In this document: one piece after another, positions 2,563 to 64,000 of the stretch
Layout of the letters: the number at the start of each line of letters is the position of its first letter
How positions within the stretch are numbered: position 1 is the first letter of the stretch
Origin: an uncultured delta proteobacterium
GTDB taxonomy: Bacteria > Myxococcota_A > Polyangia > Polyangiales > JAFGIB01
Length of the DNA: 64,000 nt
Reading direction: 5' to 3'
Assembly (NCBI GenBank): GCA_963778655.1
Contig: CAVZVA010000010.1
Location: 141,134-205,133 of the forward strand
Position numbers and translations under genes: made by a program
The notes under the pieces: model-generated
What the model saw: the letters and a program-made list of their open reading frames with translations, nothing else
What the model was told of the DNA's origin: nothing
Database searches by the model: none

Positions 2563-2979
2563 ACCGAACGCCGCCCGCCCACGTCCCGAGGCTCTGCAAT
2601 GAACGAGCTAGCAAGTTCGCCTCAACGGACATCAGCGACGAGCGCATCAACACCGCTCAGGACTGGCTTCGATTGCACGTAACGCGGATCAGCTGGCTCT
2701 GCTCTCGACTGTGCGGAAAAGAGGGGGATTGGCCGGGGACGGTACCTTGGTCAGGCGATACCAAAGTCCACTATGCAGGCGAGAACAGTGGATCCATCTA
2801 TTTGGAGCATCCAACGTGTGTCGCAACACGAGGGGCTCTCATGGGCTTTGCAACGAAGATCGCGCAGGTACGGTCGAATCGGGCTTCGCGCAGCTGCTGG
2901 CGAATCACACTCGACAACCCTTGGTCAGCAGCGCCGCCGGCCGCAGAGCCGACGTCGAACGTCACTTGGAGCACACACA

Positions 2980-4206
2980 ATGACCAGTGAACACATGCCA
3001 CTAGAAATCGTGCATACGAGCAATTTGCTTCCGACACGCGCTGTCGATGCAGTCCTTGGCCCGTCCGGCCTCCAGGTACTGCCTACGTGGCAGACCGTGG
3101 TCGTCGGCGGCGCTACGCGAGAGCCACCAGTCGCCGGCGCGCCTTCCGACTCACTATTGGGCGCATTCGATCTGATCGCGCGCAGAGGTGAAGGCCCAGC
3201 CAGCTGGGCGGCACCATTGGGCGGGGATCCGATCGCCTTTCTGTTGGACAGTATGAGCGATGCGGCGAACCTGTGGCGGGCGGACGGCACGCTCTGCTAC
3301 CGCAACCGGGCTTCGCTCGCGCTCGGGACAATCGCTAGCGCACCAGCCGACCTCGGCGAAACCGCAAGCGCCATCGAGGCGTTCTACGTGCAGGGTCAAG
3401 GTTTCGAACGCCGTTGCATGCGCTGCCGAATGTGCGCGACGCCCTATGTCCTCGAGGTGATTCGTGAGCTCGCGCGGCCCGAAGCGAATGACGAAGCGAC
3501 AACGGGAGGCGCCTGGCCGAACATCTCCGCCGACGCAGGGTCGGTCGCGGTGAGCCACGAGTTGCGCGGCCGGCGAAACGTTCTCACCTTGAACAGCGAC
3601 GGATTGCTGTGCGCTGCGCGCTCGAGCGGAACCGAGTTGTCGCGCGCATCGCTACTCAGGCGTTTGGAGCGGCTCGATCGCGCGTTGCGCTCGATGCGCG
3701 AGCTCATGGGAAGGGTGCTCGAGCTCCAGCGGAGGCAGCTGGCCGCCGTGTCTCGCCCGCAGGTCGACCTGTGTGCGGTCGTCCTGGAGGTGCTGGATTC
3801 CGAACACAAAGCGCTACGCTCCGCGGGCTGCGCGTGGACACTCGTCACGCCAAAAGCGGTCACGGGCCATTGGGACGCGCGGCTGCTGCGCGTCGCGATC
3901 GGCAACCTTGTGAACAATGCGCTCAAGTTCGGTGCAGGCCGGCCAATCGCGATCAACGTCGGAGAGCGCGACGCCGCGGCGTTCGTACGTGTCGCCGACC
4001 AGGGCAGCGGCGTGCGACCGGAAGATTACCAGTCCATTTTCGAGCGTACGAGCGGACGGGCGCGCGTGAATGGGTGGGGCCCGGGGCTGTGGCTGGTGCG
4101 CAACATCGCTCGGGCCCACGGCGGCGACGTGACTGTACGCAGCGCGCCGGGCGAAGGCGCAGCGTTCACCTTGAGCTTGCCGCGCCAGCTCACCGGCACA
4201 CGGTAG
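2980..4206 (+). CDS. sensor histidine kinase (soluble; HisKA + HATPase_c)
   Basis: ORF 2773-4206; start moved to ATG 2980. H-box VSHELRGRRN, N-box NLVNNALKF, G-boxes DQGSGV and GWGPGLWLV. Confidence 0.8.
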   Translation: MTSEHMPLEIVHTSNLLPTRAVDAVLGPSGLQVLPTWQTVVVGGATREPPVAGAPSDSLLGAFDLIARRGEGPASWAAPLGGDPIAFLLDSMSDAANLWRADGTLCYRNRASLALGTIASAPADLGETASAIEAFYVQGQGFERRCMRCRMCATPYVLEVIRELARPEANDEATTGGAWPNISADAGSVAVSHELRGRRNVLTLNSDGLLCAARSSGTELSRASLLRRLERLDRALRSMRELMGRVLELQRRQLAAVSRPQVDLCAVVLEVLDSEHKALRSAGCAWTLVTPKAVTGHWDARLLRVAIGNLVNNALKFGAGRPIAINVGERDAAAFVRVADQGSGVRPEDYQSIFERTSGRARVNGWGPGLWLVRNIARAHGGDVTVRSAPGEGAAFTLSLPRQLTGTR

Positions 4207-59623: not shown

Positions 59624-60440
59624 CACCAGCCCCACCGTTGCGCTCGCCTCACCCGAGCCGAGGGTTCGCTGCGCCCGAGCACCGCCACAACGACCGCCGA
59701 TGTCTCTTCACCCTCATCCAAGTGCCCCGGGCTCCGACGCCAAGCAGCCGACCGCCTCCCCCCCGACCCCTCGCCACGGCTCCACCCGCTCCCCCACCCT
59801 GCCGTTTTCCAGCATTGTTTGTCCTTGGACGGGTGCCACCTGTGGCCTCGGTTGCATACCTATATAGCCACATCGCTTGATATCTGTATGCCCCGTTTTG
59901 CTCCCACGACTGGTCCTTCTTGCCACCCGCGACATGTTCGGTTGGATCCGATTCTAGGAATCCCGAGTTGACCCATCCTTCCCAATGCCGGGCCTCGTGT
60001 ACCAGTGTTGCAGCTCGGTCTGATACGGTGGAAAAGAAGAACTTCGGGACGTAGGTCTCAACTCTCTTGGTGCCCCCTGTCTTAGGCTATGCCCCCTCGG
60101 AGCATCTACTTGGAGCCATGGCCCATCGAGGCCCAGCTAGGAGAATGGTGCCCGCTTCCTCAAGCGGGATGCCGAACACGGCTCCTCCTTGCCATCAGCA
60201 CGGACTCGTCCACAGCAATCAGCAAGACGCCGCGCATCGCTCGGTCGCCGCATCCAACACGCGTGTCGCGGGCCGGACCGAGCCGCAACGCCAAGCTGTG
60301 ACTGGAAACCGACCGCCCGATGTCGGGGCGGCATCGGAAACGCGGACGTCCGCCCTCGACTTCTCCCCCGCTAGGAGGAGATCACGATCGGATCGCCATG
60401 TCGATCCGTCTACCGCGAAAAAATGCCGGGGGCTGAACGG

Positions 60441-61148
60441 TTACAATGAGCCGGTCTGAGACTTAGGAATCTCCAGTCCTCTACTCTTGAGCCCGTTGGT
60501 GTCAAAGCAAATGTTGCTGCCGATGCGAGCCCACCAGAGACAAACTTGGGTGCCCTGTGGACCCGGGACGCACGAACTCGCACCCGCGTCCTTCGGCGGC
60601 GGACAACATTCCGCATCAGTACGACAAGAAAAGCAAACGTGATCCATGCAGACGAATCCGTTGCATATGTTGTTGAACTTTGGGTCCATCTGAGGCAGGG
60701 GGTCTCCGGGTTCGTAACAGAACTGACCGAGCATTCCACCAACGTAGGCTGTTCCGCCTCGACCCTTGTTCACGCACCGGTCGCGATCGCAGAACGCGTC
60801 GCCACCGCAGTTACCGCAGCCCTCATCGAACATGCGCGGAGGACCTAGCTCATCTTGAGTTGGCGGCTGATTAAACTGGATGATGTCTGGCCCCGAGAAG
60901 TCGAATGCCGCATCTGGTTGGGTCGGCTGGATGACAGAACCATCCATACATCCGGGCGCCTGCGTGAGTCCGCGAGCCTTGTCTCCGACGCATCCGTCCT
61001 TCGACTCGGCCGCCGCGTCCTTTTGGCTATTGGCGGAATGCGCCGCCGTTCCACTTGCCCCAGAGCAACTGACGGCGATTACGGCGAGGACGGATGCGGC
61101 CCCAATTTGCGCTGGACGATTCCGCTGTATAATCCCCCGGATCCCCAC
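60441..61148 (-). CDS. Cys-rich lipoprotein (17 Cys), coupled to the upstream neprosin-domain gene
   Basis: GTG 61148 lies 2 nt after the upstream stop. (M)GIRGIIQRNRPAQIGAASVLAVIAVSC lipobox. ORF-track start ATG 61178 would overlap by 28 nt. Confidence 0.6.
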   Translation of the reverse strand: MGIRGIIQRNRPAQIGAASVLAVIAVSCSGASGTAAHSANSQKDAAAESKDGCVGDKARGLTQAPGCMDGSVIQPTQPDAAFDFSGPDIIQFNQPPTQDELGPPRMFDEGCGNCGGDAFCDRDRCVNKGRGGTAYVGGMLGQFCYEPGDPLPQMDPKFNNICNGFVCMDHVCFSCRTDAECCPPPKDAGASSCVPGPQGTQVCLWWARIGSNICFDTNGLKSRGLEIPKSQTGSL

Positions 61149-61150
61149 GC

Positions 61151-62398
61151 TTAGTTGTCCGTGGTGCAATTTGGCCAATTATAGCCAGGTCCGCCTAGGG
61201 CGAACCAGTCATTCCAAACACCATCATTCTGCCGTCCGTAGGTGTTGTCATAGCACGAAAAATTCGAGGTGAGGAAATTGTACGAGTTGTTGTAGAAAGG
61301 GTCCCAAGTCGATGCATCGGGGCTCGTCACGAGATCTCGGATGTAGGCAGCGGAACCAACCCCAGCCGCAACAAACTGCCCACTCCCCATGTCGGTGGCG
61401 GTCATGACGTGGGACGCGTCTTGGGCATCGGCCACCTCACCGTACCAGCTCGCCGTGGCGATTCCACCTGCGAGACCATCAAATGTCGTCCCAGCGTTTG
61501 GATCATAGTATGTCGCCGGCACAGCGCCGATCCATTCATCGCCCCACCACACGTAATACCAGCCGGGCTGGGCGAGAACGCCAGTGAGCGCTTCTACCTG
61601 GTTTCCCCCAAGAACGCTTGCAGGCAATACCATGCCTGGCGCTTTAGTTGAGGAGATCTGATACCAGCCGTTGCATCCGCTGTTCCAACAAGAGGTCTGG
61701 TAGCCGTCTGGGGTTAAAAACAAAAAGAGGTGGGTCGAGGAGTCCTGGAAGAGCTGAGGCTGTACCATCCAGCCGACCTCCAACGTGTCCTTCAGGCCGT
61801 CTGCACCGACGTTTGCCGCGGCGAACTGCATCAGCGACATTCGGCCCGGTTCGGTGGCATCAAGCACGGGATTCCAGATGTTTAGGAATGCGGCCGTGCC
61901 CCAGAATGATCCGAAGGCGGTCACCTGCTGGTAGTGTCTGCAGTATCCGGGTGAATTGGGCGGGCAAATTGCGGGATCGGGATTGTTCACAGACGCGAAG
62001 AAGTCGTTGAGCGTCGTCGCTTTGGTCGAAACGTAGTCGGCATCAGGCCGCCAACGTGGAACGGTACCGTTGGGTCCCGTGAGTTGGGCATTGACTCCCA
62101 TGAGCAACCGTTCCATTTCCGGTGTCATAACTTCAGCGCGGGTCTTCCCCTCGAGTTCCCACAACGGCGGTGGCAGTGGAGGCGGCGTGACCCCGTCGGG
62201 AAGCTGCGATTCCGGCTTTACCCAGTCGAACAACTGGCCGCGACTTCGTTGCTTGCCGGCGACGATGTCCAGGTTCGCGCGATCGGCGTCGATGGCGGCT
62301 TCAATGCGTGCGCCACGCGAACTCTGCGATCCAGAAATCGTTAGCGCCTCTGCCTGCGCCTGCGGTGGCGCCTGATCTTGTGCGTTTTCACGCTCCAT
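61151..62398 (-). CDS. neprosin (DUF239) domain peptidase-like protein, 5' end severed by IS3
   Basis: LEVGWMVQPQLFQDSSTHLFLFLTPDGYQTSCWNSGCNGWYQ, WYYVWWGDEWIGAVP, ASWYGEV, TATDMGSGQF follow the neprosin-domain pattern. The remaining ORF starts at an internal Met without a signal peptide. Confidence 0.7.
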   Translation of the reverse strand: MERENAQDQAPPQAQAEALTISGSQSSRGARIEAAIDADRANLDIVAGKQRSRGQLFDWVKPESQLPDGVTPPPLPPPLWELEGKTRAEVMTPEMERLLMGVNAQLTGPNGTVPRWRPDADYVSTKATTLNDFFASVNNPDPAICPPNSPGYCRHYQQVTAFGSFWGTAAFLNIWNPVLDATEPGRMSLMQFAAANVGADGLKDTLEVGWMVQPQLFQDSSTHLFLFLTPDGYQTSCWNSGCNGWYQISSTKAPGMVLPASVLGGNQVEALTGVLAQPGWYYVWWGDEWIGAVPATYYDPNAGTTFDGLAGGIATASWYGEVADAQDASHVMTATDMGSGQFVAAGVGSAAYIRDLVTSPDASTWDPFYNNSYNFLTSNFSCYDNTYGRQNDGVWNDWFALGGPGYNWPNCTTDN

Positions 62399-62457
62399 TA
62401 CACATCCTGCACACCCTGGAATTCCCCCGATTTCTTGGACAAGTTCAATGAGGCACT

Positions 62458-62781
62458 ATGCGTCCAGAAATCATGCCAAAGAAGCGACAAGGAAAACGCC
62501 GGAAGTTCACCAGCGAGTACAAGGCGGAGGTGGTTCGGCTGTGCCAGCAGCCGGGCAGCACGCCGTTCGCGGTTGCCCGAGAGCTTGGCCTGACGGCAAG
62601 CGCGGTGACCAACTGGGTTCGTCAAGCGACCGTGGATGCCGGCGGCGGCGGCTCGGGTCCGCTGACGACGGCGGAGCGAGAGGAGCTGGCGGCGCTTCGG
62701 CGTGAAAACCGAGTGCTGCGACAGGAACGCGAGATTCTGAAACGGGCCACCGCTTTTTTCGCCAAGGAGGGCACGTCGTGA
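62458..62781 (+). CDS. IS3 transposase OrfA (HTH)
   Basis: [44 protein letters not shown], with a leucine-zipper-like tail. Confidence 0.85.
62754..62760 (+). promoter_or_regulatory. candidate -1 programmed frameshift heptamer T TTT TTC (OrfA to OrfAB)
   Basis: X XXY YYZ in the OrfA frame (GCT TTT TTC). The OrfB frame is open upstream of this point. Confidence 0.55.
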
Positions 62782-63656
62782 CCGCAGACGTGTACCGTTT
62801 GGCCGACGAGTCCAAGACGTCGGTCGCCGCGGTCTGTCGTGCGCTGCAGTTGCCACGCAGCACGGTGTATGCGCAACGGTCGCGCCCTGTGAGCGCACGG
62901 GCCCAGGAGACCGCACAGCTCGACGTCGAGATCACCGCGACCCATCTGCAAAGCAAGCGGCGCTACGGGAGCCCGCGCATTCACCGACACCTGCGGCGGC
63001 AAGGAAGACGCGTCAGCCGAAAACGCATCGAAGCGCGAATGAGGGCGCTGGGCTTGCGTGCCCGGTGTCCCAAGCGCTTCCGGCGCACGACCCAGGCCGA
63101 CAGCTCGCACGTCCCGGCGCCCAACCTGCTCGATCGCCGCTTCCGCTGGGACAGCCCCAATCGAGCATGGGTCGGCGATATCACCTACGTGTGGACCGCC
63201 CAGGGATGGAGCTACCTGGCGATCCTGGTGGACCTGTGCACGCGAGCCATCGTCGGCTGGGCCGTCAGCGACCGTTGCGACACGGCCCTGGCGCTGCGGG
63301 CTCTGCGGGCCGCCGTGGCTCGCCAGCGTCCTAGCCCAGGTCTGCTTCACCACACCGACCGCGGCTCGACGTACACGGCCGCGGACTACCGCGCGTGCCT
63401 TCGCAAGCTCGGCATGCAGGTCAGCATGAGTCGGAAAGGCAACTGCTGGGACAACGCCGTGGCGGAGTCGACCATTGGCACCATCAAAGCCGAGCTCTTT
63501 GGAGACCGGGTTCCGGGGAGCATCGACGAAGTCCGCTCCCTGCTGTTCCCGTATATCGAGGGCTTCTACAACCGATCCCGTCTTCATTCTTCAATCGACT
63601 ACATGACACCTGCGGAGAAAGAAGACATGACCTGTCACAGCGGAGCTGTGGCATAA
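62778..63656 (+). CDS. IS3 transposase OrfB (rve/DDE)
   Basis: [33 protein letters not shown] (D,D,E). In the -1 frame relative to OrfA. Confidence 0.85.
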
Positions 63657-63687
63657 CAAAGCTGTCTACGAAATCGGGGGAGGCTCA

Positions 63688-63744
63688 CCCGAACGAAGGA
63701 AGAACCAACGTAGTGCAATAGAGAAAAGTTCTTGCAAGAGGCAT
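63688..63744 (-). pseudogene. displaced first 19 codons (signal peptide) of the neprosin-domain gene
   Basis: AAGGAG RBS 6 nt upstream of ATG 63744. MPLARTFLYCTTLVLPSFG runs straight into the IS3 right end. Confidence 0.55.
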
Positions 63745-64000
63745 GAGGCGCTCCTTAGTAGTGAGGTTGGGATTGGGTTGATCAGATTCGACACGCTCGG
63801 GCACGTTTCTGTCGTGTACCTCAGGGCCTACAAATGGCATTTTTTTCCAGTGGAGGCGGATGAATCGCGGTGGAGTGCAGGATGCTCTTGCGCGTGGTGC
63901 GACGAAGTGAAAGACCGATCGTGTGCGGGTTGCGCGCGGGTGGGAGTGCGTTTTGCCGTGGCTTCGACCGACCGCCTTGTGATGGTGGTGGAAGACGATC

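Follow-up and report, generated by a model that had tools for sequence, protein, structure and literature searches.

A recent IS3-family insertion has very probably cut the export signal from a bacterial neprosin-type peptidase gene

Few neprosin-domain proteins are known from bacteria, with about 50 sequences in Pfam in 2022, and they are uncharacterised. A gene for such a protein lies near the right end of the stretch of DNA analyzed here (below, the window), which comprises 64,000 nucleotides from the genome assembly of an uncultured delta proteobacterium (GCA_963778655.1, contig CAVZVA010000010.1, positions 141,134 to 205,133 of the forward strand). As it now stands, the gene reads as an open reading frame of 415 codons on the minus strand, beginning close to one end of an insertion sequence (IS). 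The locus raises the question of whether this frame is a complete gene, with its native start and a cytoplasmic protease as its product, or the 3' part of a longer gene, the beginning of which lies on the far side of the IS.

The inserted element was delimited using family models and its four full genomic copies. It belongs to the IS3 family, occupies positions 62417 to 63687 (plus strand; 1,271 bp, about 68% GC), and runs from TGGAATTCCCCCGATTTC... at its left end (62417) to ...GAAATCGGGGGAGGCTCA at its right end (63687). Its termini form imperfect inverted repeats of the TG...CA type. The left repeat, IRL (62417 to 62441, plus strand; TGGAATTCCCCCGATTTCTTGGACA), starts with TG, the right repeat, IRR (63663 to 63687, plus strand; reverse complement TGAGCCTCCCCCGATTTCGTAGACA), ends with CA, and 19 of 25 positions are identical between IRL and the reverse complement of IRR. 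The element encodes orfA (62458 to 62781, plus strand; 107 amino acids), which carries an HTH_Tnp_1 domain (PF01527, E = 2.7e-12), and orfB (62778 to 63656, plus strand), which carries the DDE transposase/integrase core (PF00665, rve, E = 7.8e-28). Further Pfam matches in the transposase are to HTH_21 and rve_3, and orfB scores 323.3 bits with the IS3 transposase model NF033516, against a cut-off of 160, over model positions 92 to 368 of 369. The frame of orfB is -1 relative to that of orfA ((62778-62458) mod 3 = 2), and the heptamer T TTT TTC, read from the sequence in the zero frame of orfA (62754 to 62760, plus strand), is a candidate -1 frameshift signal, that is, a putative slippery site leading from orfA into the orfB frame.

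Elements of the IS3 family generate a direct target duplication of 3 to 5 bp with each copy. Here, the trinucleotide CCC abuts the element on both sides, the left copy of the target-site duplication at 62414 to 62416 and the right copy at 63688 to 63690, where it also supplies codon 19 of the split gene (GGG, Gly). The genome to which the window belongs (7.09 Mb in 12 contigs) contains four full copies of the element and one truncated copy. All four full copies align over exactly positions 1 to 1271, with 0 to 3 mismatches (at least 99.8% identity), and 3-bp direct repeats flank the other three full copies as well (ACG, TCC, and CCT). Because these copies have the same ends and 3-bp repeats of their own, the boundaries of the window copy and its CCC duplication are real and not a chance match.

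The truncated copy is found about 9.6 kb rightward of the window copy, in the opposite orientation (own genome, G000:C10:214415-215516; locus L005). It ends at position 1102 of the element and, up to that point, matches the window copy at every position (100% identity over 1 to 1102). At position 60, which falls in orfA codon 7, the window and truncated copies have C (CCA, Pro) and the other three full copies have T (TCA, Ser); the window copy and its truncated neighbor look like siblings from a local hop. A composite transposon or inversion involving the truncated copy was considered for the window locus and was ruled out both by the matching target duplication of the window copy and by the split gene, which continues directly on either side of the IS.

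To the right of the element, on the minus strand, the Shine-Dalgarno sequence AAGGAG (63751 to 63756) lies 6 nt upstream of ATG 63744, which opens a 5' gene fragment of 19 codons (63688 to 63744, minus strand; MPLARTFLYCTTLVLPSFG) that would correspond to the n- and h-regions of a signal peptide. These 19 codons are followed by a TGA stop that is supplied by the terminal TCA of the IS (IRR). To the left of the element, the 3' fragment (61151 to 62413, minus strand) begins with the five codons CAGCV (62413 to 62399), in which the lipobox-like Cys20 and Cys23 are located, and passes into the 415-codon frame at ATG 62398. Removal of the IS and one CCC in silico yields an empty site in which ...LPSFG-CAGCV-MERENAQ... 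is read in one frame of 19+5+415 = 439 codons. A preliminary description of this locus had placed the IS and both CCC copies at these positions, had read AAGGAG, a 6-nt spacing, ATG 63744, and 19 codons up to the IS end on the minus strand, and had obtained a single 439-codon frame through CAGCV and MERENAQ by the same excision; all of its coordinates agree with ours.

As a control for chance, we scored all ATG-started frames in the empty-site window with a loose signal-peptide/Cys rule, which 6 of 1373 satisfy (0.4%); the neprosin leader is the sole one of those six that also has a Shine-Dalgarno match. In the interrupted sequence, the present frame of the gene reads TAG-CLIELVQEIGGIPGCAGCV inside the IS, with no ATG, GTG, or TTG upstream of 62398. 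Because the in-frame IS sequence offers no start codon, ATG 62398, preceded at a distance of 6 nt by a weak AGGA, is now the first usable start. On the other side of the element, the leader frame runs on for 104 codons without a stop as far as the window end (63685 to 63999, minus strand) and includes an in-frame ATG at 63840. This ATG was rejected as an alternative start, as it has no Shine-Dalgarno sequence and would place the hydrophobic stretch 32 residues away from the N-terminus, and the 104-codon open stretch is judged to be a chance frame across the divergent promoter region.

The body of the gene bears a clear neprosin signature. The Neprosin domain (PF03080) was detected at residues 186 to 404, with a score of 111.9 bits against a cut-off of 22 and over profile positions 3 to 214 of 214. 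A phmmer search matched solved neprosin structures (9qr8, 7zu8, and 7zvb, E about 1e-23), in which TIEaGW and gGEI of 9qr8 and 7zu8 are aligned with TLEvGW and yGEV of the protein encoded here. The catalytic dyad of neprosin consists of E188 and E297, positioned by T186, Q173, and Y214 (PMC9343461). Their counterparts, in the numbering of the 415-residue protein, are E207 and E321 for the dyad and T205, Q191, and Y233 for the helper residues; all five are identical, and both catalytic Glu residues are invariant in an eight-sequence alignment (A3). Furthermore, the body can be aligned with its relatives over its full length and shows no frameshifts. Judged from these alignments, it is undamaged and keeps its predicted catalytic residues. 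The Neprosin_AP pro-domain (PF14365) gave no match at E <= 0.01 in the 415-residue protein; among the bacterial relatives, P0005, P0006, and P0008, which are more distant, have it. An AlphaFold2 model built on eight aligned sequences reached a mean pLDDT of 58, with the C-terminal third below 50, which is too poor for the fold to bear on the pro-domain. No other neprosin-domain gene was found in the organism's own genome, of which the split gene is the only copy. The IS copies are at least 99.8% identical, the target duplication is intact, and the 415-codon body is undamaged and conserves its catalytic residues; for these reasons, we consider the insertion to be recent.

We conclude, with high confidence, that a single recent transposition of an IS3-family element split a gene for an exported neprosin-type peptidase between codons 19 and 20 and duplicated CCC in the process. 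The intact gene would have extended from ATG 63744 to the stop at 61151, a total of 439 codons. Its first 19 to 22 or so residues (MPLARTFLYCTTLVLPSFG-C-AG-C) would have served as a signal peptide with a lipobox-like Cys at its end, and the product would have been a pre-pro-lipoprotein that the Sec system exported and that either received its acyl group at Cys20 or Cys23 or underwent cleavage by signal peptidase I. Following insertion, translation of the leader would end at the IS-derived TGA and yield a peptide of 19 residues. Initiation of the body would be confined to the internal ATG 62398, giving, if the body is transcribed, a leaderless cytoplasmic protein of 415 amino acids, and the native promoter would have been moved 1.27 kb further away from it. 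Because the transposase gene is on the opposite strand, any transcript that reaches the body must read through 1.27 kb in the antisense direction. We infer that export and lipidation of the protease have been lost and that the body and the partner gene downstream (described below) are transcribed less or only by read-through across the IS (polarity).

Expression signals at the element were sought by computation. Near the left end of the IS, a promoter scan detected nothing sigma-70-like that points outward, and RNA folding of the junction between IS and gene was not significant (z = -1.4). The search for terminator-like hairpins inside the IS returned two weak ones, below the shuffle mean. They overlap, have T-rich tails, and lie near IRL at 62485 to 62515 on the minus strand, along which any read-through from the neprosin promoter would proceed.

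The surroundings of the insertion differ in composition from the remainder of the window. GC content is about 58% from approximately 60.0 kb up to the IS and 55 to 62% just past it, compared with 67 to 72% in the rest of the window. A low GC of about 55 to 59% is common to both IS flanks, and the 68% GC of the IS equals the level of the genome. Because of this contrast, the split gene appears to be part of a foreign islet and the IS to be native to the genome. The lower-GC islet spans window positions 60000 to 62416 and continues from 63691 to about 64100 (positions 2775 to 3224 of locus L001), and it includes the neprosin gene, a Cys-rich partner gene, and the leader/promoter region. Within the lineage, a protein search detected the neprosin domain in one of 40 relatives (29% identity), and the Pfam model detected it in 2 of the 200 further genomes sampled from the phylum. 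Base composition and distribution are consistent with horizontal acquisition of the neprosin islet.

The partner gene (60441 to 61148, minus strand) encodes a putative Cys-rich lipoprotein with the lipobox AVSC. Its likely start codon, as read from the sequence, is GTG 61148, 2 nt past the TAA stop of the neprosin gene. The protein has no match to a Pfam or NCBIfam family. On a metagenome contig (L008, 2014 to 2382), the gene immediately after that of the closest neprosin homologue encodes a protein 53% identical to it, and the Cys-rich protein may be a functional partner of the protease, whether as inhibitor, anchor, or substrate. On the other side, a divergent intergenic region of 237 bp (63745 to 63981), presumed to be the native promoter region, separates the neprosin start from a gene for a FixJ/NarL-type response regulator with a receiver domain and a LuxR-type HTH (from near 63982, plus strand, past the window end and to position 3674 of L001). 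The regulator gave weak matches to many NCBIfam response-regulator models and could control the neprosin module.

We regard it as unlikely that the IS was selected to silence a newly acquired mobile module of two lipoproteins or that it switches such a module in a mixed population. If true, this would provide a natural on/off pair for the study of the bacterial neprosin role, and the module would be a surface-anchored glutamate-peptidase zymogen with the Cys-rich partner as its possible inhibitor, anchor, or substrate. A related reading, to which we give little credence, is that the insertion is functionally silent, with the leaderless 415-residue zymogen still being made, through internal initiation on read-through transcripts from the native promoter, and either acting in the cytoplasm or released by lysis, or that it is adaptive, a costly new protease module having been silenced. 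The undamaged body with its intact catalytic residues, the AGGA ahead of ATG 62398, and the foreign low-GC islet with a domain present in only 2 of the 200 other phylum genomes all speak for this reading. However, an undamaged body is equally expected after a very recent neutral insertion, as the near-identity of the IS copies would imply, and the scan detected no outward promoter. Moreover, zymogens of the neprosin type become active in an acidic extracellular environment, which the cytoplasm does not offer.

The insertion might also be a product of assembly or of a sub-population, with the IS misplaced or present in only some of the cells (for example, following a jump during cultivation) so that a working gene remains. 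The presence of at least five near-identical IS copies in a 12-contig assembly lends this some weight, yet a perfect 3-bp duplication together with exact in-frame restoration is the signature of transposition, unlike that of repeat collapse or a mis-join, and the window is continuous through both IS junctions. These features speak against misassembly and leave room for a mixed population; overall, we hold this reading to be very improbable and favor the one in which a transposition event split the gene.

That reading predicts that uninterrupted relatives begin with the kind of leader that the excision restores. When the joined product was searched against 5.8 billion proteins, only eight non-self relatives were returned, the best being P0002 (53 to 60% identity, 472 amino acids) and P0003 (40%). 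We aligned the joined protein with six full-length homologues (seven-sequence alignment A1). A signal peptide of the lipoprotein type opens all six, and their lipobox Cys residues form an invariant column that is aligned with Cys23 of the joined protein; Met25, the first residue of MERENAQ, falls one to two residues past that column. Because the lipobox Cys of the homologues aligns with Cys23, ATG 62398 specifies an internal Met and the 415-residue frame lacks an export signal. Homologues start about 17 to 27 residues before the MERENAQ equivalent, with a signal peptide, and none starts at that equivalent itself.

The comparison was extended to 13 homologues with readable N-termini, namely, the six in A1, four from named genomes, one relative from the same family, and two from the same phylum. 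The named-genome homologues were obtained with a three-sequence alignment as query; they are distant (27 to 29% identity) and come from a Synechococcales MAG, Tahibacter soli, a Desulfuromusa MAG, and a betaproteobacterial MAG. A signal peptide was recognized in all 13, 11 with a lipobox Cys and 2 of the signal-peptidase-I type. In a relative from the same order, the N-terminal segment IGAGC/AVDEG resembles FGCAGC/VMERE of the joined protein.

The restored N-terminus itself has the general features of an export signal. It has a single early Arg (R5), followed by zero charged residues from position 6 to 25, and its best 11-residue Kyte-Doolittle window reaches 1.69, versus 0.36 for the present frame. 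Its first 8 residues include one K/R and no D/E, and those of the present frame include one K/R and three D/E. Gly-Cys occurs twice in the joined protein, at positions 19-20 and 22-23. We also applied PROSITE-type and G+LPP lipobox patterns as regular expressions, with the Cys expected at positions 15 to 35. The joined lipobox (PSFGC / GCAGC) satisfies the loose rule at both Cys20 and Cys23 and fails both strict patterns because of the Pro at -4 of Cys20 or the Cys at -3 of Cys23. Among the homologue N-termini scored, 11 of 12 satisfy the PROSITE-type rule, the exception being the signal-peptidase-I-type Tahibacter sequence, and the h-region of the joined leader is the least hydrophobic of all N-termini scored. 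The joined lipobox is atypical and non-canonical. The intact protein was most likely lipid anchored, with Cys20 or Cys23 as the lipobox-like Cys; the alternative to lipidation would be cleavage by signal peptidase I after SFG or CAG.

Two further statements of the preliminary description can be assessed at this point: that the restored N-terminus is of the signal or lipoprotein type and is missing from the 415-residue frame is borne out by the homologue signal peptides and the alignment at Cys23, with an atypical lipobox by explicit rules, and that the insertion is recent enough to have left both halves intact is upheld by the identity of the IS copies, the intact target duplication, and the undamaged body. 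The consequences that it expected, namely, lost export or dependence on IS-derived transcription, are predictions, and no sigma-70-like outward promoter was seen at the left IS end. The notion that the join is a coincidence, with ATG 62398 as the native start of a cytoplasmic protein, an unrelated 19-codon frame, and an IS that landed in an intergenic leader, can point to the AGGA 6 nt upstream of that ATG and to the failure of the joined lipobox under strict patterns, but it is largely refuted already and, in our estimation, extremely unlikely, since all 13 readable homologue N-termini have signal peptides and their mature parts align from the Cys on around MERENAQ, since the combination of an in-frame join, a Shine-Dalgarno sequence, and a signal-peptide-like N-terminus is unique among the 1373 ATG frames, and since plant neprosins are secreted too.

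The event that we favor, disruption of an exported protease gene by the IS, has left the intact allele to be rebuilt on paper. An uninterrupted allele was not found in the protein database, where the best non-self match is 53% identical, and the exact empty-site junction had no matches in metagenome contigs. The intact allele is a reconstruction from the interrupted sequence, with no observed copy in the databases searched. For annotation, the 415-residue neprosin frame is best described as the 3' part of an IS-interrupted gene and not as a cytoplasmic protease or a frame with a native start. As the only neprosin copy of its genome, knocked out by an IS that we describe as recently or currently active, the gene represents a natural knock-out.

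How does this locus compare with known systems? Bacterial lipoprotein precursors are processed in the Lgt/LspA pathway and carry the lipobox L-[AS]-[GA]-C. Like them, the joined product has a short positive n-region (R5) and an uncharged hydrophobic stretch, followed by Gly-Cys, and it aligns with the canonical lipoboxes of its homologues. Unlike consensus precursors, it is off-consensus at positions -3 and -4 (P-S-F-G-C / G-C-A-G-C) and offers two candidate Cys residues.

The body resembles neprosin, the prolyl endopeptidase of Nepenthes (PF03080/DUF239; PDB 7ZU8, 7ZVA, and 9QR8), in its domain score, its Glu dyad, and its helper residues, and the protein is predicted to be of the secreted type, with an N-terminal extension in the position of a pro-domain. 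It departs from plant neprosin in being bacterial, about 25 to 30% identical, and most likely anchored as a lipoprotein and not soluble; furthermore, PF14365 is undetected, and the gene is paired with one for a Cys-rich lipoprotein. Taken together with its relatives, the protein shows a bacterial branch of neprosins that, from N-terminal sequences and gene order, appears to be typically lipoprotein anchored and, at least among the closest relatives, paired with a Cys-rich lipoprotein.

The interrupting element is much like IS3, IS150, and IS911 of the IS3 family. It shares with them a length of 1.27 kb, imperfect TG...CA repeats, multiple near-identical copies in one genome, orfA (HTH) and orfB (DDE/rve) in 0 and -1 frames with a slippery heptamer, and a 3-bp target duplication. 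It has no close named relative: identity to plasmid-borne transposases goes no higher than 53% (Roseomonas), and at the DNA level the nearest match, on a Sandaracinus plasmid, covers 36% of the query at 67% identity. It is probably an unnamed IS that would receive a new IS name. In all other respects, the event is an ordinary, textbook insertional knock-out by an IS3-family element, cleanly documented.
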